Counted from the stretch's first letter, positions 24,643 through 38,090 are shown. The stretch is DNA of 38,281 nucleotides from a virus (IMGVR_UViG_2737471992_000010:1-38281); one strand, 5' to 3'. Program-made: numbers and translations. Notes: generated from the sequence alone by a model not told the origin.

Positions 24643-24719
24643 GTGGCATTAGCTCAGTTGGACAGAGCAACCGCCTTCTAAGCGGTTGGTCGCAGGTTCG
24701 AATCCTGCATGCCACGCCA
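24643..24719 (+). tRNA. tRNA-Arg, anticodon UCU (reads AGA)
   Basis: Hand-folded cloverleaf: 7-bp acceptor stem GTGGCAT/ATGCCAC, D arm GCTC...GAGC, anticodon stem ACCGC/GCGGT with loop CTTCTAA, T arm GCAGG-TTCGAAT-CCTGC, discriminator G and encoded CCA. Confidence 0.9.
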
Positions 24720-25364: not shown

Positions 25365-26840
25365 TTAAGCATAGGGATCGTAATCTGTGATGGCCTTGCC
25401 TTGCTGGTTCTGCTGCCCGGGAATTCGCAGACGCTTAGACACAGGGAACGCAAACGTCAGCAGTAGCGCATCGCCTTTACCAGGAGAACGCCCAAGTCGC
25501 TCTTTGATATCTTCCTTCGGTTCGATAACGATTTTACCGTCCACGCGAACTTTGTACTCTGCCGTCGACAGGTCGTCCGCTGTTTCCTGGTCATCCAGCA
25601 TGCCGCCGAGCCTCAGCCATGTCTTGCATGAGTTGAACATCTCCCCACGCTTGTTGAGCATCTGCGGGTCAGTAGACGCGCCACCGAACGGAACAAGTTG
25701 CCATGTACGACCCCAGCCATCACCGATTGACTTCAAACCGGTTCCGTAACCGAAGTCGATGAACACCGCGTCAGCCTGATACTGGTCTTCAAAGTCAGCG
25801 ATACGCTTCGCCATAATCAGATCGTCAGTGGTCTTGTTGCCAGTCCACAGCACCTTACTGTGCAGCCCCTGCCGCAGGTATATCACAGCGTCATCAACAC
25901 CGGAGTATGCCGGGTCAACGCCGATTATCACCGGAGCATGTGCCACCTGCGCAGCGGTTACCACCCGTTTCATTGCCTCGTCAGTAAGACCGGTAGGGAT
26001 AAACTGCAATTCAGATGCATCCGGGAATATGCCGCGCACACGGATTTTAACGAAGTCGCTGTCTTCCCCGTAGTCATCAACCCATTTCTGCAACTGCTGT
26101 TTGTTGGTGCCTTCCACCGTCCGGCTGTCAATCTGCGCAGTTTTCCAGCGGTGTTTATACTTGCGGAAACATTCACGGAATCGCCCGGTATTACGCGTCG
26201 GGTTTCCGAACGCCACCCAGATAATCTCAGTGTCTTCGTCCGTAAGCGCACCCTCAGCAACTTCCCACACCAGATCCGCAATGTTCGACGCTTCATCGAA
26301 TACCACGATGATGCGTTTGCGCTCGTTGTGTAATCCGGCGAATGCCTCAGTGTTGTGCTCAGACCAGGGGATTGCGTCAGCTCGCCACCGCTTGTCGTGC
26401 CCAGGATCATTGCTGTACATCGCGGTAGCGGTACAGGTAAACCAGTCTTTCGTGATAGCAAGGTTCGACCACTTGATAATTTCCGGCCAGGTCTTCGTTC
26501 GTAGCTGGTTGTCGGTGTTGGCGGTCACCACGACCTTACAATCCTCGCAAGTGGACATGCCCCAGTTGATCAGCATTGAGATGAATGCGGATTTACCAAT
26601 ACCGTGACCAGAAGCGCGTGCCAGCATAAGCGGCTGATAGCGCGTCTCTGGATTCTGCAGGTGATCACGTATCTCTCGGAACGCATCAGCCTGCCACTGA
26701 CGTGGACCGGTGGCATGTGCCAGTTCAGTCCCCTCTTCCCCCCACGGGAACGCATAGAGGGCATAGCCAAGCGGATCGTGAGTGAACCCTGCAATATCCT
26801 CGATCAACTGTTCTTCAGGAGATAACGCTGCATCTGTCAC
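25365..26840 (-). CDS. Terminase large subunit
   Basis: 491 aa; Walker A-like ASGHGIGKS, downstream acidic nuclease-type motifs; follows the small subunit gene with a 4-nt overlap. Confidence 0.85.
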   Translation of the reverse strand: MTDAALSPEEQLIEDIAGFTHDPLGYALYAFPWGEEGTELAHATGPRQWQADAFREIRDHLQNPETRYQPLMLARASGHGIGKSAFISMLINWGMSTCEDCKVVVTANTDNQLRTKTWPEIIKWSNLAITKDWFTCTATAMYSNDPGHDKRWRADAIPWSEHNTEAFAGLHNERKRIIVVFDEASNIADLVWEVAEGALTDEDTEIIWVAFGNPTRNTGRFRECFRKYKHRWKTAQIDSRTVEGTNKQQLQKWVDDYGEDSDFVKIRVRGIFPDASELQFIPTGLTDEAMKRVVTAAQVAHAPVIIGVDPAYSGVDDAVIYLRQGLHSKVLWTGNKTTDDLIMAKRIADFEDQYQADAVFIDFGYGTGLKSIGDGWGRTWQLVPFGGASTDPQMLNKRGEMFNSCKTWLRLGGMLDDQETADDLSTAEYKVRVDGKIVIEPKEDIKERLGRSPGKGDALLLTFAFPVSKRLRIPGQQNQQGKAITDYDPYA

Positions 26841-27433
26841 TGATTGCCATCCTGACGTTCTTTCAGTCTCTTCCTGGCTGCCGCTATGCGATCAGCAATT
26901 GTCACATTCACATTAACATCCAGGCGTTCTTTGAATGCATTGACATCGACGTGCTTACCAATCAGCTCAAGGTTCTTCACCTTGTCAGGCCATTTAATTT
27001 TTTTGAGGATTGTCTCTATCGAATCCTCGTTCATGTTCATGATGGTCGATGACAGATCAAAGCCGCTAAGCGTAGTGCGCCAGATTTTCGGCCACTCGCG
27101 GATTGGCTTAAGGCTCCCATCGTCGTTGAGGATATCAATCACGTCCATCTGGTCGATCTCCACCAGGCGCATGAGAACGTAATCAGCACTGACGCGCATT
27201 CGTTTGTTGCGCTCCTCCATCAACTCGGCAATCCGTTTTTGAATGCGTTCATCGCGCATCATGACACTGGCTTTAACTGCCGCTGTATTTGGGGAGAATC
27301 CTGCGTTAATCGCTGCCTGAGTCTGGTTTTCAGGCGTTTTGATGTATGACTGGCAATAAGCCTCCTGCATTGCTGTTAGTGGCTTAAATTGCGTTGATTT
27401 GCGTTTATAGGCTTTAGGTTCAGCAGGCATCAT
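26837..27433 (-). CDS. Terminase small subunit
   Basis: About 198 aa from MMPAEPKAYKRK; conserved TAMQEAYCQSYIKTP...AAINAGFSPNTA region; the track N-terminal extension (27434-27511) looks spurious. Confidence 0.7.
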   Translation of the reverse strand: MMPAEPKAYKRKSTQFKPLTAMQEAYCQSYIKTPENQTQAAINAGFSPNTAAVKASVMMRDERIQKRIAELMEERNKRMRVSADYVLMRLVEIDQMDVIDILNDDGSLKPIREWPKIWRTTLSGFDLSSTIMNMNEDSIETILKKIKWPDKVKNLELIGKHVDVNAFKERLDVNVNVTIADRIAAARKRLKERQDGNQ

Positions 27434-27551
27434 AACCACCGTGGTAATAGTTACCGTTGTGGTAATAGTACCATGCAAAATAAAGCCGCCATAGTTGGCG
27501 GCAGTATTCAAAACCCGTCAAATTCATCATGCATAATCTACTCGTGACATG

Positions 27552-27890
27552 TCACACTATTAATTTCGTTTCATGCCAGCCTTTAGTCACCCAGCATTGT
27601 GAGTCACCATTACACGGACATGAATTAACTGGAACTCTCTCGCCGCACTTACCGCAACGTGTTCTGCTGATCGATTTTATACGCCCGTGCACGCGTGCAT
27701 CATCCTGGCGGATCAGTAACGCTATATACTCACCAAATTCGTAAGGCGCACGCCCGGGGCGACGCGTGGCACAGTTACGCTCCAGCATTTCAATTTCCTG
27801 AGCATCAAGCACAATCTCCAGCTTACGCACACCAGATGCAGCTTGTCTGGCTCTCTGAGCGGCTTTGCGCTCTGCTGCTGATTTAGCCAT
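27552..27890 (-). CDS. Basic protein with C-terminal Cys-rich zinc-ribbon-like motif, at the Q/late-regulator position
   Basis: 112 aa; Arg/Lys-rich N-terminus, CGKCGERVPVNSCPCNGDSQC near the C-terminus; immediately upstream of terminase. Confidence 0.4.
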   Translation of the reverse strand: MAKSAAERKAAQRARQAASGVRKLEIVLDAQEIEMLERNCATRRPGRAPYEFGEYIALLIRQDDARVHGRIKSISRTRCGKCGERVPVNSCPCNGDSQCWVTKGWHETKLIV

Positions 27891-28236
27891 TCTGATTTTC
27901 CTGCATCATGAGAAATACAATCATGGCGGCTCGGAGTGGATTATTCGCATGAAAGCAAATGTTCTCGGCATTAAAAACAGCTGACCACTCACCGCGAGAG
28001 TGGTGGCAGGTTAGACTGATTTTATTATCAACAATAATAGGCCATGCATCCGATGGATTATTGCAGTAGTCAGGTAAAGGGTTTAATGGCTCAAAAGTTG
28101 TATCAGTATTTCCGTAATACCATTTGTTGGTGTTATTCCCTGATGTTTCCGGTTTACACGCCCAAAGGCCTTTAAAAATTATGTCTCCTACCATTCTGTT
28201 AATTTCAAAATCACTTAACTGTGAATAGTCCATCAT
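27883..28236 (-). CDS. NinX/DUF2591-like phage protein
   Basis: 117 aa; composition and length resemble the DUF2591 family of lambdoid nin regions (from memory). Confidence 0.4.
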   Translation of the reverse strand: MMDYSQLSDFEINRMVGDIIFKGLWACKPETSGNNTNKWYYGNTDTTFEPLNPLPDYCNNPSDAWPIIVDNKISLTCHHSRGEWSAVFNAENICFHANNPLRAAMIVFLMMQENQNG

Positions 28237-29147
28237 TTCACCTCCTGCGGTGGTTCCGGTAGCGGCATCCAGTGGGTTGCTTGCTCAATACCATTACCCG
28301 GCTTAATCGTTGCATCTCCGCGCCGAAAGGTGCTTCCGGTATAGCGTGCGGAGCATATTAGCGGTTCAACCAGAGAGCTATCGAAATTCACCGAAATAAG
28401 CACGTTCTGGCCCTTTTCAGGCATTCGCTCACTACAGCTTATCCAACCATCCGGAGTTACCGGAGAGTTGCCTGCCAGTCTACGCAAAACAGCCTTAACA
28501 GCCTCAATACGGTCATCATCGTAACTTTCCGCCGTATCTATGCGGTCGAGCATGATGATTGCGTTATCAATATCAGGATTGCCGGTCCACTCATTACCGC
28601 GATTGGATTCGGCAGCCTGGTTGCCGCGTACTGGTTGATTGTCGGCTTTACCCAGTCTGTCGTCGCTGCATGAATGCCCTTCCAGCCAGGCCAATGCTTG
28701 TCGCATGAAATACGCAATATGTTTGCCGTGGTAATCGTCTTCATCGATGTGAAAAGCGATACTGCGGATGTATTCAATTGCGTTTTCAATGGCCTCCGGC
28801 GTTATCGGAGTTGGTCCATCGAATTCGGGCATGTCAGGACCTTTTCTGATAGCTTTAGCCAGCTCCAGCGGGTCATCGTAAAGCCAGTCGCCAGTTTGTG
28901 GGTGATTTGCTTCTGCAAGCTGCGCAGCCCATTCAAGACCATCTTTTTGACCTTGGAGATAATCAAGCGGCAACTCTTCATGATTACTTGCAGGTTCGGC
29001 ACTATCAGCTTCGCGCCGCTTCTGTAGCTCTGCTGCCATTGCTCTCACGACTTCAACTGGTGCCCTTGCAGCAAACTCTATGTTGGTGATTAGCTCATTA
29101 AGATATTGCTCGCCTGGATACTGTTTCTTATCGGTTATAGTGGTCAT
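28233..29147 (-). CDS. Hypothetical protein with DUF551-like C-terminal domain
   Basis: Start reassigned to the ATG at 29147 (AGGGAGAG RBS); C-terminal DGWISCSERMPEKGQNVLI...WMPLPEPP pattern typical of DUF551. Confidence 0.5.
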   Translation of the reverse strand: MTTITDKKQYPGEQYLNELITNIEFAARAPVEVVRAMAAELQKRREADSAEPASNHEELPLDYLQGQKDGLEWAAQLAEANHPQTGDWLYDDPLELAKAIRKGPDMPEFDGPTPITPEAIENAIEYIRSIAFHIDEDDYHGKHIAYFMRQALAWLEGHSCSDDRLGKADNQPVRGNQAAESNRGNEWTGNPDIDNAIIMLDRIDTAESYDDDRIEAVKAVLRRLAGNSPVTPDGWISCSERMPEKGQNVLISVNFDSSLVEPLICSARYTGSTFRRGDATIKPGNGIEQATHWMPLPEPPQEVK

Positions 29148-29148
29148 A

Positions 29149-29784
29149 TCACTCTCCCTTGATGCCAATGTTTACAGCTTGGCAAGCCTCTTTGAGCACC
29201 CAGTCAACAGCGTCTTTCCATGCTCCGGTTTCGACTGGCGGGTTCTCACGTTTTACCTGCTCATAAAAACGCACCGCTTTAATCAGTCCTTCAGGTACTA
29301 CTGGCGATGGCTGTTTAGCTTCTAAATCAGCAATTCTGTCAACTACGGCATCTACTGCATCTGAAAAACCGAACCAGTTACTCCACTCAGGCCTATCCCC
29401 GGTTGCTGCAAAATACATATCAGCTAAAGCAGACTCAGCATGGTCACGCTCGTTAATGAGTTGCTCTTCGCTTTTCTCCAGTTCAGCAATACGCTTACTT
29501 CCATCCGAGATAACACCTTCGTAATATTCACGCTGCTCGTTGAGTTTTGATTTTGCCAACTCCAGTTGTTTTGTTAGTTCCGCAATACGGCAAACATCGT
29601 TGATACGCGTTTCCTCTAATGCGTTGATCTCATCCAACAATGCCAGCGCGATATCTGGCGAAAAGTGCTTCATAAAATCGTTAAGCGCATTAATTCGCTG
29701 ATCGAAAGGCATTACAGGTGCTTCACCAGCAATTTTTGTTTTTTCAGCGATTTCACGAAGCTTTTGATAATCAATCTTGCTCAC
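29149..29784 (-). CDS. Ead/Ea22-like coiled-coil protein
   Basis: 211 aa, charged coiled-coil, in the early-right accessory region. Confidence 0.45.
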   Translation of the reverse strand: MSKIDYQKLREIAEKTKIAGEAPVMPFDQRINALNDFMKHFSPDIALALLDEINALEETRINDVCRIAELTKQLELAKSKLNEQREYYEGVISDGSKRIAELEKSEEQLINERDHAESALADMYFAATGDRPEWSNWFGFSDAVDAVVDRIADLEAKQPSPVVPEGLIKAVRFYEQVKRENPPVETGAWKDAVDWVLKEACQAVNIGIKGE

Positions 29785-30266
29785 TGGTTGCCCTCCTTCA
29801 TAAAAATAATCCAGTGGGTCTTGTCACCCTTTCCTGTTCGTTGACCGATAACAGGCTTTCTGTCTGTCAGTGCCAATATTTGGCGAACAGGTATTTGCGT
29901 TTCATTCCATTTAAAAATCAGAACACCATATGGCCACAACACACGAAAGGCTTCTTTAAATCCCTGCCGCAAATCATCACGCCAGGTATCTTTATTCAGC
30001 CGTCCATATTTCTTTCCCATCCAGGCGTTATCACCAACACGCTCAAGATGCGGAGGGTCGAATACAACAACCGGAAACGATGCGTCTGCAAATGGTAATG
30101 CACGAAAATCTGCTATCAGGTCAGGGCTAATTATCAGCCGTCGGCCATCACACAATATGTGATCTTCCTTTCTGATATCGCTAAATATCGCCCGGTCGTC
30201 CTTCTTATCGAACCAGAACATGCGACTGCCACAGCACATGTCGAGGATTGCTGCATGTCCAGTCAC
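29781..30266 (-). CDS. Small orphan DNA methyltransferase (amino-methyltransferase type, DPPH motif)
   Basis: 161 aa; SAM-binding-like LDMCCGSR near the N-terminus and catalytic-type tetrapeptide DPPH (VVVFDPPHL); no adjacent restriction gene. Confidence 0.55.
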   Translation of the reverse strand: MTGHAAILDMCCGSRMFWFDKKDDRAIFSDIRKEDHILCDGRRLIISPDLIADFRALPFADASFPVVVFDPPHLERVGDNAWMGKKYGRLNKDTWRDDLRQGFKEAFRVLWPYGVLIFKWNETQIPVRQILALTDRKPVIGQRTGKGDKTHWIIFMKEGNQ

Positions 30267-30919
30267 TGGTTGCCTCCTTTGCGAAGCTGGGCGGCAAAGT
30301 CAGTCGCATGCTCACCGAGTAGTTTCCAGTTATCGCGTATATCAGATGCAAGCGACTGTTCGGATTTTGAGTTACATTTCTGTGCAAACATCTCCAATCC
30401 CTGCGCCCGCACTTCAGCCAGGCATTTGCGAAACTCGGAAACGTACTGTTCGACGCTCATTCCCCAGCTAAGTGGACATTCATTGAATGTTTCGCCTTCG
30501 TGCTCTTCATCAGGTAGCTCTTTGGTAAAGAACTCACGTTCAATGGCGTGGAGTGTGTCAGCAAAACGACGTAAGTTACTCAAACCTGTCGTAATGGAGA
30601 ATTCAGGAGCATCACATCCGACGCCCATCTGCTGATAAACGGCGGTTTTGAAGGCCTTAAGCCCCGCATTCTCCGCTGCCAGCGCCGAAAACTTCTCATG
30701 TGCCAACTTAACAGCCGAATCAGCCTGCTTAATTGACTCAATCGCTCTCTGGTGGTCTTCGGCCAGCGCATTAGCACGCACCAGTTGCACTTCCAGTTGC
30801 GTTGCCAAATCGCTGATCAGCTTTGTCACACTGCGCATATCAACGGCACCACATTCTGCTTTCAGTTCCGAAGCCATCTCATGCCCGGCGGCAACTAACC
30901 CTTTGATATTACTTTCCAT
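30263..30919 (-). CDS. Ead/Ea22-like hypothetical protein
   Basis: 218 aa, coiled-coil rich N-terminal half; overlaps the downstream methylase start. Confidence 0.4.
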   Translation of the reverse strand: MESNIKGLVAAGHEMASELKAECGAVDMRSVTKLISDLATQLEVQLVRANALAEDHQRAIESIKQADSAVKLAHEKFSALAAENAGLKAFKTAVYQQMGVGCDAPEFSITTGLSNLRRFADTLHAIEREFFTKELPDEEHEGETFNECPLSWGMSVEQYVSEFRKCLAEVRAQGLEMFAQKCNSKSEQSLASDIRDNWKLLGEHATDFAAQLRKGGNQ

Positions 30920-30980: not shown

Positions 30981-31325
30981 TCAGAACTCTTCGATGTTCC
31001 AGCCACCACCTGCTTTCTTTGGCTTAACCGTTACCCCGATGATTCGGAACGGATACTGATCTGCGGCGACTTTGGTTTTCACCCTGGCGTCGTCGGTCCA
31101 GAAACCTTTCACTTCGTGCAGTTCCATCTCGCCGGTGGCGAGCATCACAGCAAAATCGGGCGTATAGAACGTGTTGTCAGCTAACCGCAACTTGATACCC
31201 TCGAATCGATACCAGGCGATTTCCCCTGCACGTTTACGCTGCTCAAGGTGCTGGCAATACGCAGATTCTGTTTTGTTCATCTGGCCTGTTTTGAGTCGAC
31301 CAAGAGCCTGCATCTGTTTTCTCAT
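30981..31325 (-). CDS. DUF1064-family phage protein
   Basis: 114 aa; pattern NKTE..Y...LE..K.AGEI..Y.FE.IKL.LA...YTPDF.V...GE.E.HEVKG typical of DUF1064 proteins found next to phage replication genes. Confidence 0.6.
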   Translation of the reverse strand: MRKQMQALGRLKTGQMNKTESAYCQHLEQRKRAGEIAWYRFEGIKLRLADNTFYTPDFAVMLATGEMELHEVKGFWTDDARVKTKVAADQYPFRIIGVTVKPKKAGGGWNIEEF

Positions 31326-31442: not shown

Positions 31443-32243
31443 TTACTTGATAAATCCTGCCGCCTTTCCCCGCCTGTATTCCTCCATCAGCCACTGCGCC
31501 GGTGTTATTCCCCCCAGGGTAGCGGCGTTAGGCATACACCCGAAACTTCGCCCTGGTGGATGGTAAACGTCTCTCCCTGTGTCCGGAGGCGTACTCATGG
31601 GTTCTGGCTTTGCCTGTATGCTGATCACCGGATCGGGTATCTGCTGTCCGGAAGCCACCTTTTTCGCCCAATCATCAAGCAGCCTGCGCGCGTGTTTCTC
31701 AACCTCAATCTCGCTAAGCTGGCGCTGATACATTGCACGGCGGGTATCACATACGACCCAGTACATAACCGGATGCCGCCACGGGAATCTTTCGGGACCA
31801 CCAGGATATAAACTTTTTTCCTTGCTGTACCGGTGAAACTCCGCCATCACATCGTCAATGGTGACGCCAAGAACCATCTTGCTGTCTTTACACCACTTGA
31901 TAAATTGCCCTGGCGACGGCCAGAACGGAGATTCACTGGCGCGGGCGTGGCGCATACCAGCAGAAACCTGTTCACGGGTTCGGATCCCCCCTTCGGCAAA
32001 CGCAGCAATCCACTGCTGTTTTGCAGCAACTTCCTGCTCTGGCGTCTTCAGGTTGGTTACCACTGCCGCCGGAAACAGTTGTTTCAACTGTTTGAAAAGG
32101 GCATCAACAAGCCTCTCTGCTGACATGTTCACTACGTTGTCATTGTTGGTGTACTGATGCTCATAACCTGACATGCGAGAAAGGGCTTCTCCGTCACGGT
32201 TTTGTATCGCGGTAAAAACGTTGTTCACAAGAAATCCTCCCAT
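31443..32243 (-). CDS. Replication protein P-like (helicase loader)
   Basis: Segment GMRHARASESPFWPSPGQFIKWC matches lambda P GMRVARRQNRPFLPSPGQFVAWC; start may be the internal ATG at 32174. Confidence 0.75.
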   Translation of the reverse strand: MGGFLVNNVFTAIQNRDGEALSRMSGYEHQYTNNDNVVNMSAERLVDALFKQLKQLFPAAVVTNLKTPEQEVAAKQQWIAAFAEGGIRTREQVSAGMRHARASESPFWPSPGQFIKWCKDSKMVLGVTIDDVMAEFHRYSKEKSLYPGGPERFPWRHPVMYWVVCDTRRAMYQRQLSEIEVEKHARRLLDDWAKKVASGQQIPDPVISIQAKPEPMSTPPDTGRDVYHPPGRSFGCMPNAATLGGITPAQWLMEEYRRGKAAGFIK

Positions 32244-33040
32244 GCTTCAGGGCTGTTCCAGTGCGGAACGTTGTTATCAGGTAATGTTGATTGCTTCTGT
32301 CTGCTAATCTGCAGCCGCCTTGCCAGCTTCTGCTCCCACTGTGCCTGATGGTATGCCCTACCCTCAGCCATCCAGTAAATTCTGAACTCTGCAAGTTCCT
32401 GTGCCGTTGGCAGACTGTCCAGGTAGATCCCCTGCAATGAGCTTTTCCGAAGAAAGTCATCTGATGGCTGCCATTGTTCATGCATGACAAATTTGCCTAA
32501 TTGCCCTGGCCCACCAGGAGGAACAAAGTTATTCATCACGGCGTTGTTTGCGCCGGGGTCATGATGCACAGAATCCCCGTTTTTTGTCCTGCTCTCCCTC
32601 TCTTGGTTAAATGACTGGTTATATGACTGGTTCTGGATCCCGTTTTTGGGATCATTCAACATCCCGTTTTTGGGATCATTCAACATCCCGTTTTTGGGTA
32701 TATTCCCGTTTTCGGGAACATTACCGTTTTCGGGTTCATTACCCCCTTCCCGGTTGCCTTTAATGTTCCCGTTTTTGGTTATATTAAGAGAGAAAACCCG
32801 CACTCTTTTCGTCGCTCCCTTTCTCTCTCCGGTATCTGAAATAAGCCCCATTTTCATGAGCGATATAAGCCCGGCCTGCACGGTTTTTTTATTCAGGCAA
32901 GTGTCTTTAACGAGGCGTTCTATGCTGGGGTAGCAGAGGTTATATTCATCGGCTCTGTCAGCCATCGAGAGCAGTATGAGCTTTAATGACGAGCTACCTG
33001 GATCTGTCTCCCAGGCCCAATCTGTTGCATGTCTGCTCAT
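32225..33040 (-). CDS. Replication initiator O-like protein with ori iterons inside the gene
   Basis: 271 aa; N-terminal HTH-like region, central NG/PENG/PKNG peptide repeats encoded by DNA iterons; immediately upstream of the P-like gene as in lambda O-P. Confidence 0.7.
   Translation of the reverse strand: MSRHATDWAWETDPGSSSLKLILLSMADRADEYNLCYPSIERLVKDTCLNKKTVQAGLISLMKMGLISDTGERKGATKRVRVFSLNITKNGNIKGNREGGNEPENGNVPENGNIPKNGMLNDPKNGMLNDPKNGIQNQSYNQSFNQERESRTKNGDSVHHDPGANNAVMNNFVPPGGPGQLGKFVMHEQWQPSDDFLRKSSLQGIYLDSLPTAQELAEFRIYWMAEGRAYHQAQWEQKLARRLQISRQKQSTLPDNNVPHWNSPEAWEDFL
32637..32781. repeat. Origin iterons: 5-6 copies of ATCCCGTTTTTGGGAT-like inverted repeat at about 24-bp spacing, followed by an AT-rich stretch
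   Basis: Perfect copies at 32637-32652 and 32661-32676; degenerate copies at 32685-32700, 32703-32718, 32721-32736 and about 32766-32781; AT-rich atattaagagagaaaa follows. Confidence 0.75.
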
Positions 33041-37147: not shown

Positions 37148-37447
37148 GTGAGAAAGTTAAGCCGACTTGAAAAATATCACATGAACAAGGTTTCAATGCG
37201 CAGTCCGTCAAAGATTGTCGCCGTTACTCCTGCGGCGATAGAGATCGAAAAACGCGCGATTGAAAGAGAGAAAAAAGGGCAGTTCCGCATTGCCGCTCAC
37301 CTTTGGCTTCAGTGTATGGATGTTGCTTCTGGTGATGTTGAGCGTGCAAGGATCGCGGTTCGCAGGGACCAATGTATCACAAAAGGTAACGGCCTTCGCC
37401 GTGGCGACTATAGCGGCATAGGATGTTGTGGGGTGGTTTATGACTAA
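37148..37447 (+). CDS. PerC-family transcriptional regulator-like protein
   Basis: Segment EKKGQFRIAAHLWLQCMDV...ERARIAVRRDQC fits the PerC/Pch pattern (KG..RRAA..W......ER..I..RR..C); GTG start at 37148 assumed, true start may be internal. Confidence 0.45.
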   Translation: MRKLSRLEKYHMNKVSMRSPSKIVAVTPAAIEIEKRAIEREKKGQFRIAAHLWLQCMDVASGDVERARIAVRRDQCITKGNGLRRGDYSGIGCCGVVYD

Positions 37448-38090
37448 GAAATACACACTAATCTATGCAGATCCACCCTGGGTATACCGGGACAAAGCCG
37501 CAGATGGTAATCGCGGTGCCGGTTTTAAATATCCGGTTATGAGTGTGCTGGATATCTGCCGCCTTCCTGTGTGGGATTTGGCCGATGAAAACTGTCTGTT
37601 GGCCATGTGGTGGGTGCCAACACAACCACTCGAAGCACTAAAAGTTGTTGAGGCCTGGGGATTCCGTCTGATGACCATGAAGGGATTCACGTGGATAAAA
37701 TGTGGTAGTCGACAACCAGATAAACTGGTTATGGGTATGGGGCACATGACTCGCGCCAATAGTGAAGATTGCCTGTTTGCAGTTAAGGGAAAACTACCTA
37801 CGCGCATTAATGCAGGGATCGTTCAGTCATTTACCGCACCGCGGCTTGAGCATTCAAGAAAACCAGATGTCGTTCGTGAAAAACTTGTGCAATTGTTAGG
37901 CGATGTTTCTCGCATTGAACTGTTCGCCCGCCAGTCGTCTCATGGCTTCGATGTTTGGGGTAATCAGTGCGAAGACCCGGCCGTGCAACTACACCCAGGA
38001 TACGCGTTGGATATTGGCGGATTAACAAATGCATTCAGCAATGCTCCGCTGTCACCAACAGACAACCAGGGACGGGAGCGTGCAGCATGA
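37440..38090 (+). CDS. DNA N6-adenine methyltransferase, MT-A70 family (orphan)
   Basis: 216 aa from MTKKYTLIYADPPW; catalytic DPPW motif near the N-terminus as in MT-A70 phage methylases; no restriction partner nearby. Confidence 0.7.
   Translation: MTKKYTLIYADPPWVYRDKAADGNRGAGFKYPVMSVLDICRLPVWDLADENCLLAMWWVPTQPLEALKVVEAWGFRLMTMKGFTWIKCGSRQPDKLVMGMGHMTRANSEDCLFAVKGKLPTRINAGIVQSFTAPRLEHSRKPDVVREKLVQLLGDVSRIELFARQSSHGFDVWGNQCEDPAVQLHPGYALDIGGLTNAFSNAPLSPTDNQGRERAA

Follow-up and report, generated by a model that had tools for sequence, protein, structure and literature searches.

The locus considered here raises a simple question: does a 161-aa open reading frame (ORF) lodged between Ea22-like genes of a phage encode a working DNA methyltransferase, and, if so, what does it do for the phage? 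We examined it within the whole 38,281-nt stretch of viral DNA, hereafter the window, which is an almost complete genome of a phiV10/epsilon15-like phage (Uetakevirus). We hold, with moderate confidence, that the protein is an active minimal SAM-dependent N-methyltransferase acting on a DNA base, likely in an anti-restriction role. The gene itself is real and intact. Its ORF lies exactly where the original prediction had placed it, on the minus strand and with a GTG start (Table 1), and the product has a computed mass of 18.8 kDa and a pI of 9.05. Six nucleotides separate the GTG from a Shine-Dalgarno sequence, and in the tetranucleotide GTGA it shares bases with the stop codon of the upstream Ea22-like ORF; the two genes are thus translationally coupled. 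We take this GTG for the true start because the next in-frame ATG (M10) would drop the conserved residues L8 and D9. An identical protein from E. coli is already present in NCBI under the name 'class I SAM-dependent methyltransferase', and sequence comparison puts the conservation of the ORF far above chance.

Table 1. Features of the window discussed in the text, with positions counted from its first nucleotide
Feature	Position	Strand	Evidence and remarks
TerS	26837..27511	minus	PHROG/Pfam
Regulator (late-regulator-like)	27552..27890	minus	PHROG/Pfam
NinX	27883..28236	minus	PHROG/Pfam
Mosaic accessory segment (NinX, DUF551, Ead/Ea22, methylase, most of Ea22-like ORF)	27890..30652	.	blastn and tblastn against MN187550
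DUF551	28233..29168	minus	PHROG/Pfam
Downstream Ead/Ea22-like ORF, 211 aa	29149..29784	minus	PF13935, E = 1.5e-13
Methyltransferase ORF, 161 aa	29781..30266 (stop included)	minus	GTG start; class I SAM-dependent; orphan
Motif IV, D70-P-P-H73	30048..30059	minus	Invariant in 56 relatives; directly after beta-4 (residues 64-69, model)
D53, motif III acidic residue	30108..30110	minus	Alignment; at least 90% conserved
D30 (motif II), acidic and invariant, where beta-2 ends	30177..30179	minus	Alignment and model
Motif I, SAM-binding loop L8-D-M-C-C-G-S14 (LDMCCGS)	30225..30245	minus	Alignment; beta-1 is residues 7-9 in the model
Upstream Ea22-like ORF, 218 aa	30263..30919	minus	PHROGs 492, 250, 368; no Pfam match
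Shine-Dalgarno sequence AAGGAGG	30273..30279	minus	Direct sequence reading; inside the 3' end of the upstream Ea22-like ORF
DUF1064	30981..31325	minus	PHROG/Pfam
P-like loader	31443..32243	minus	PHROG/Pfam
O-like initiator	32225..33040	minus	PHROG/Pfam
MT-A70 orphan methylase	37428..38090 (first ATG 37440)	plus	PF05063, PHROG 359; leftward early operon after RecE/RecT and activator

In an alignment of 56 diverse relatives, which are 40-79% identical to the window protein, the invariant positions are D9, D30, R32, P48, D70-P71-P72-H73, W95, E105, R108, L110, K119, W120 and P138. The SAM-binding-type motif and the DPPH tetrapeptide, both noticed beforehand in the single sequence, stand out here at residues 8-14 and 70-73, respectively, and the set of SAM motifs is intact. 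Motif I, L8-D9-x-C-C12-G13, is a variant of the D-x-G-x-G pattern, with D9 invariant and C12 and G13 at least 90% conserved. The position of D30 fits a strand that the model places at residues 26-30. D9/G13, D30 and D53 occupy the places used for SAM binding in class I enzymes. From general knowledge of class I methyltransferases, D30 presumably contacts the ribose of SAM, and D53 is assumed to contact its adenine. The place directly after beta-4 is that of motif IV in enzymes methylating exocyclic amino groups, in both DNA and RNA families. When compared with the pattern (D/N/S)PP(Y/F/W), the DPPH motif is invariant and rightly placed, with an atypical histidine at the fourth position. RNA and protein amino-methylases also bear (D/N/S)PPx sequences of the motif IV type.

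The original prediction was staked on the presence of a methyltransferase fold or activity. As to the fold, the structure model and fold comparison give a confident class I assignment with the seven-stranded beta-sheet typical of methyltransferases, and the structural neighbours agree, so that absence of the fold no longer speaks against the prediction. As modelled, then, the window protein is a class I SAM-dependent methyltransferase. In the model, the N-terminal half of the sheet lacks its usual helical cover, and the core finishes directly after beta-7. Nothing resembling a conventional target-recognition domain (TRD) was found in the window protein or in the architectures of its relatives, and a beta-hairpin at residues 33-47 is the only indel-prone, high-entropy segment, with 1-8 (mostly 4-8) extra residues in 25 of the 56 sequences; a minimal enzyme whose target recognition is unclear is just what had been proposed. 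Extensions at both termini of the relatives are heterogeneous, leaving a core of ~150 aa as the conserved unit. The idea that the N-terminal extensions form a conserved accessory or DNA-binding domain was rejected on account of this heterogeneity and the absence of any Pfam domain common to them; most are probably mis-called starts or read-through fusions. Two read-through fusions in the databases carry an Ea22-like C-terminus (P0002, 279 aa) and a DUF551-like C-terminus (P0124, 304 aa), which is consistent with frequent recombination or frameshifts at overlapping stop/start junctions.

An HMM search, proposed as a check on the methylase assignment, had a divided outcome. On the one hand, the protein matches PHROG 954 'DNA methyltransferase' over its full length (E = 8.7e-87, residues 3-160) and two PADLOC models, MTase_II PDLC03288 (E = 8.8e-73, residues 6-160 onto profile positions 3-164 of 169) and oMTase PDLC03730 (E = 2e-49). 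We take these PADLOC models to stem from REBASE sequence clusters. The 'DNA methyltransferase' labels of PHROG and PADLOC are annotations, not tests. On the other hand, the DNA-methylase models of Pfam and NCBIfam stayed below threshold: no match to PF01555, PF02384, PF02086, PF05869 or PF05063 was obtained at E <= 10, the NCBIfam search gave nothing meaningful, and the Pfam hits of the window protein were sub-threshold ones to Methyltransf_11 (17.6 bits against a cutoff of 21.2) and Methyltransf_25 (15.2 against 27). These two models are also the only consistent Pfam signal among the 56 members (55 and 47 of them, respectively), some of which exceed the gathering scores, with a best E-value of 3.7e-10. 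PF01555 (N6_N4_Mtase) matches 18 of the 56 weakly, over the stretch from DPPH to beta-5, the best E-value of 1e-3 being below the gathering score. PF03602 (Cons_hypoth95, RsmD) and PF01170 are each matched by a single member (E = 0.042 and 0.071).

Sequence searches of the PDB, run with the single protein and with the 56-sequence profile, yielded chance or very weak matches, which were discarded (a metallo-beta-lactamase at E = 0.2, PH0226 at 1e-4 and RsmD at 0.15). RsmD, an rRNA m2G enzyme, was the profile's nearest motif IV match in the PDB, aligned across its DPPF. Specific kinship to the beta-class N6_N4 methylases, to MT-A70 or to N6_Mtase was dropped as well, at hhalign probabilities of 0.5%, 0.4% and 11%, in comparisons against single neighbouring or co-resident DNA methylases. 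Among the structural neighbours, RNA methylases (Trm11, Bud23, RsmC, TrmN, RRP8) and small-molecule methylases are as numerous as DNA methylases; M.TaqI is found among the Foldseek matches (E = 1e-5), and a fold search of BFVD returned one true family member (TM 0.91), the remainder being generic. In structure, the family stands apart. Fold and profile comparisons of this kind cannot separate DNA from RNA amino-methyltransferases.

By sequence, the window protein is an ordinary member of a widespread phage family that is already catalogued in PHROGs, PADLOC and NCBI; it shares size, motifs and early-operon location with the PHROG 954/PADLOC family, and nothing material sets it apart. Homologs fall into 7,778 clusters at 90% identity (E <= 1e-5) and 1,992 clusters at 50% identity (E <= 1e-3), and 255 phage records bear the gene. 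Phages of Streptococcus, Vibrio, Acinetobacter, Porphyromonas, Listeria, Gordonia, Enterococcus, Staphylococcus and Akkermansia encode proteins at 45-65% identity, and haloarchaeal tailed viruses have homologs at 35-38%, so that the hosts span Firmicutes, Actinobacteria, Bacteroidota, Verrucomicrobia, Proteobacteria and haloarchaea. The gene is present in 945 of 5,426 complete E. coli genomes (~17%), including O157:H7 strains. Across all phyla, most members are stand-alone proteins of ~150-170 aa with no conserved neighbour. We found no Pfam or NCBIfam model, solved structure or published specificity for the PHROG 954 family. Literature searches on DPPH-motif, orphan and TRD-less phage methylases returned no experimental characterisation of any of its members, and a preprint on an accessory-gene screen does not mention the family.

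The surroundings of the gene in the window agree with the 'early-right accessory region' of the original prediction. The O-like and P-like replication genes precede the methylase gene on its own strand, and the minus-strand region from the O-like gene to TerS is the nin-region equivalent of the rightward early operon. Both flanking ORFs are Ead/Ea22-like, as had been supposed; PHROGs 250 and 368 are common to the two, and PF13935 matches the downstream one. PADLOC detected no nuclease or defence match among the neighbours of the methylase gene or in the leftward early operon, which comprises the repressor, RecE, RecT, activator and MT-A70 genes. The methylase is therefore an orphan, and the claim that it has no restriction partner holds. 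Likewise, neither a conserved partner gene nor a restriction endonuclease was found in eight sampled contexts of the family and the PADLOC scans. There is no lysis gene between the late-regulator-like gene and TerS. The closest relative of the window is phage phiv142-3 (MN187550), with 98.3% identity across 90% of the structural region. Its genes for holin, endolysin and endopeptidase lie at the far end of the late operon, equivalent to about positions 1-2700 of the window, a placement that is epsilon15-like and not lambda-like. A tRNA-Arg(tct) gene was called by ARAGORN on the plus strand at 24643-24719, between the portal/structural genes and TerL, whereas the phiv142-3 record puts its own tRNA-Arg(tct) on the strand of the structural genes.

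Comparison with phiv142-3 also showed that the methylase gene belongs to a mosaic segment. The 2.8 kb listed in Table 1 have been replaced wholesale relative to phiv142-3, while both flanks are collinear at ~98% identity, and no homolog of the methylase was found in MN187550 by blastn and tblastn. The segment is a hotspot of hypervariable accessory content, with the replication genes on one side and the regulator/terminase genes on the other. The same methylase gene, with 98.8% nucleotide identity, occurs in a P22-like prophage of E. coli 19AR1321 (locus L005, 9001-9486). There it resides in the leftward early operon, downstream of ral, with anti-RecBCD/DUF2737 on one side and ead/Ea22-DUF551-ant-xis-int on the other. 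The window copy belongs to the rightward operon, and so the cassette travels from one early operon to the other and among phages of unrelated type. Taken together, the replacement relative to phiv142-3 and the placement in the P22-like prophage indicate that the gene is a mobile accessory cassette bounded by Ead/Ea22-type sequences.

The boundaries of the methylase gene are themselves repeated. The GTG of the downstream Ead/Ea22 gene overlaps the TGA of the methylase, behind the same AAGGAGGGCAACCAGTGA junction as that found upstream. Both junctions (29781-29796 and 30263-30279, minus strand) are near-identical, AAGGAGG(G)CAACCAGTGA, and combine the Shine-Dalgarno sequence, the last codons of the upstream gene, K-(G/E)-G-N-Q, its TGA and the GTG of the next gene. 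The junction resembles the boundary of a module and might drive the exchange of cassettes among Ead/Ea22 genes. A copy with two mismatches is present at the 3' end of TerS (26837-26852).

If the database labels do not settle the substrate, genomic company gives some indication of it. In the sampled contexts, the family gene is always found in early replication/recombination modules, with no conserved partner. Genuine DNA methylases are repeatedly found nearby: PF02384 (N6_Mtase) in Staphylococcus phage QT1, a PF00145 C5 DNA_methylase that in Gordonia phage Bosnia is the adjacent upstream gene, and PF01555 (N6_N4_Mtase) two genes upstream at loci L006 and L007. A further connection comes from the common 248-aa variants of the family, which carry an extra C-terminal module of ~60 aa (WP.EVG.V..Q.E.A..L....Q..LK..IN..WLE.MP) matching PHROG 16025 and the C-terminal end of PHROG 111. 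The Mtase of Citrobacter phage phiNP and Sb44 of Salmonella phage ST64B both end in a tail that resembles this module, at 43-44% identity (E = 2e-15 and 3e-16); these two proteins are PF05869 'Dam' DNA N6-adenine methylases (E ~1e-43, GNPPYS). The PF05869 cores and the family cores did not align by blastp, and their sole common part is the accessory tail, present in the 248-aa variants.

The tail occurs joined to the family core, joined to a PF05869 Dam core or alone, usually directly upstream of a PF00145-like C5 methylase and DinI (loci L011-L014, 5001-7708; L008, 1820-4421; L009, 1802-2695; L010, 3498-5725). In four prophage loci the core+tail variant directly precedes a PF00145-like methylase of 627-654 aa, followed by DinI, and in phiNP it is the PF05869 enzyme that fills this place in the nin region, ahead of a C5 methylase. 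In ST64B the order is Dam+tail and then RusA, so that the tail goes along with the small methylase, whereas Klebsiella phage 5 LV-2017 encodes it as a free-standing ORF. From these arrangements it looks as if one small DNA methylase core had been displaced by an analogous one. The tail might link two methylases as an adaptor, or serve as a module that binds DNA or the replisome. It was not detected in the window protein or anywhere else in the window.

The PF05869 Dam enzymes (HP1 Dam/T1 Dam type, including the phiNP Mtase and ST64B Sb44) are thus comparable to the PHROG 954 family in several respects. Both are small, TRD-less orphans from phage early/nin regions, both have a (D/N)PP(Y/H) motif IV, and longer variants of both share the ~60-aa tail and the genomic slot. 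However, PF05869 proteins have NPPY instead of DPPH, their cores have no detectable sequence similarity to those of the family, and the window protein is tail-less. The S. aureus orphan phage methylase PamA, a protein of 141 aa with NPPY at residues 64-67, methylates GATC (PMC12435837). As a functional precedent, PamA shows that sequence specificity is possible in an orphan phage methylase of so small a size.

The gamma-class enzymes M.TaqI and HsdM (PF02384, N6_Mtase) have the same order of motifs as the window protein: motif I, then II/III, then IV. However, they either possess a large C-terminal TRD or need HsdS, whereas the window protein stops after beta-7 and has no PF02384 match. The small RNA m2G enzymes RsmD (PF03602) and Trm11 resemble it in their minimal Rossmann core and in the Asp of their DPP(F/Y) motif IV, but the likeness consists of weak profile and fold matches, and the HMM match to the family is not significant. 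Moreover, unlike RsmD and Trm11, the family has no RNA-binding domain and is confined to phages and prophages, among DNA-metabolism genes.

On this circumstantial evidence, namely the PHROG/PADLOC labels, the early-operon context, the clustering with DNA methylases and the tail and slot shared with PF05869, DNA is the most likely substrate. The invariance of the (D/N/S)PPx motif and the weak PF01555 matches of 18 members point to DNA as well, and the basic pI and the Ral and anti-RecBCD neighbours in the P22-like prophage also count for DNA methylation and anti-restriction. Against it stand the sub-threshold DNA-methylase HMMs, hhalign probabilities of at most 11%, the RNA and small-molecule enzymes among the structural neighbours, the atypical histidine and the missing tail. 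Conservation across phyla with no TRD would equally suit a universal RNA target, and an amino-methyltransferase making, for instance, m2G or m6A in tRNA or rRNA is an unlikely alternative. Such an enzyme might, with similarly low probability, reprogramme host translation or shield host or phage RNA from defence nucleases that target anticodons or ribosomes. Yet no THUMP, PUA, S4 or similar RNA-binding domain was seen in any architecture examined, the match to Cons_hypoth95 is limited to the one member mentioned above, and the tail module and slot are common to DNA adenine methylases. Furthermore, genes for RNA repair or modification never accompany the family, whose associations are with DNA methylases and genes of DNA replication. 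A protein or small-molecule methyltransferase of the Methyltransf_11 type, in which DPPH is a lineage-specific variant of the 'xxxH' at beta-4, seems very improbable to us, as does its presumed target, a host metabolite, a signalling nucleotide or a protein. All four residues of DPPH are strictly invariant, and an invariant motif of this type is a hallmark of nucleobase or glutamine amino-methylation that is foreign to Methyltransf_11. The basic character of the protein, its genomic context and the shared module likewise favour DNA.

It is also conceivable, though we find it highly doubtful, that the protein is the core of a DNA methylase and needs a partner for activity or specificity: the tail module, the large C5-type methylase that adjoins it in other prophages, or a second subunit. 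The tail-less 161-aa copy in the window, which has neither tail nor C5 methylase at hand, would then be weakly active, non-specific or non-functional, an outcome to which we assign little probability. The stable arrangement of core+tail directly upstream of the large PF00145-like methylase at four independent loci, the free-standing tail of the Klebsiella phage, the helices missing over the N-terminal half of the modelled sheet and the Trm112 dependence of several top structural neighbours (Bud23, Trm11, Trm9, KMT9) are all in line with such a need. It is contradicted by the prevalence of stand-alone members in all phyla, and by clear purifying selection on the 161-aa form, which recurs in the 945 E. 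coli genomes. A broader proposition, which we rate as rather unlikely, treats the whole family as pan-phylum phage N-methyltransferases acting on a universal RNA (tRNA/rRNA) or a nucleotide-derived molecule, in host takeover or counter-defence; its milder version has the enzyme methylating adenine in DNA almost or wholly regardless of sequence. A non-DNA substrate would explain the cross-phylum conservation, the absence of a TRD and the failure of every DNA-methylase model. If low specificity is true, the 18.8-kDa enzyme would make a very compact tool for footprinting or DNA labelling, of the EcoGII/Hia5 kind.

For the reading that we prefer, a DNA amino-methyltransferase, the following mechanism can be proposed. 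The methylase would be expressed early from the rightward operon, in translational coupling with the upstream Ea22-like gene. SAM would be held by D9/G13, D30 and D53, and a flipped base would be placed against the DPPH loop after beta-4, where its exocyclic amine is methylated. N6 of adenine is likelier to be modified than N4 of cytosine because the first residue of motif IV is Asp. Since the protein has no separate TRD, contacts with the target would have to come from the conserved 25-residue loop following DPPH (about residues 74-95, with Y87, G88, L90 and W95), from K119-W120 and from the hairpin at 33-47, perhaps aided by dimerisation; a dimer might cover the helix-free face of the sheet. 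Replicating phage DNA, modified early in infection or induction, would then remain uncut by host restriction systems, which is the purpose named in the original prediction. That prediction is thus supported in part: the ORF, its conservation, fold, motifs, orphan status and mobility are shown here, whereas the DNA substrate, the modified base, sequence specificity, dimerisation and the anti-restriction role are inferences.

The window gene itself is a common, already annotated accessory gene. However, the PHROG 954 family is among the most widespread small phage methyltransferases, ranging from phages of several bacterial phyla to haloarchaeal viruses. Identification of its substrate would improve the annotation of thousands of prophages, including those of O157:H7 and Stx phages.

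The window encodes a second orphan methylase, as had been predicted for 37440..38090. Its ORF extends from 37428, and its assignment to MT-A70 is borne out by PF05063 (79.7 bits against a cutoff of 23.9, E = 3.3e-22), by PHROG 359 (E = 1e-120) and by a DPPW close to the N-terminus of the product ('LIYADPPWVYR'). The gene overlaps the 3' end of the activator-like ORF (37148-37447) by 20 nt. At the corresponding place in phiv142-3, only a 92-aa 'putative adenine methylase' is annotated; this copy may be truncated or mis-called.
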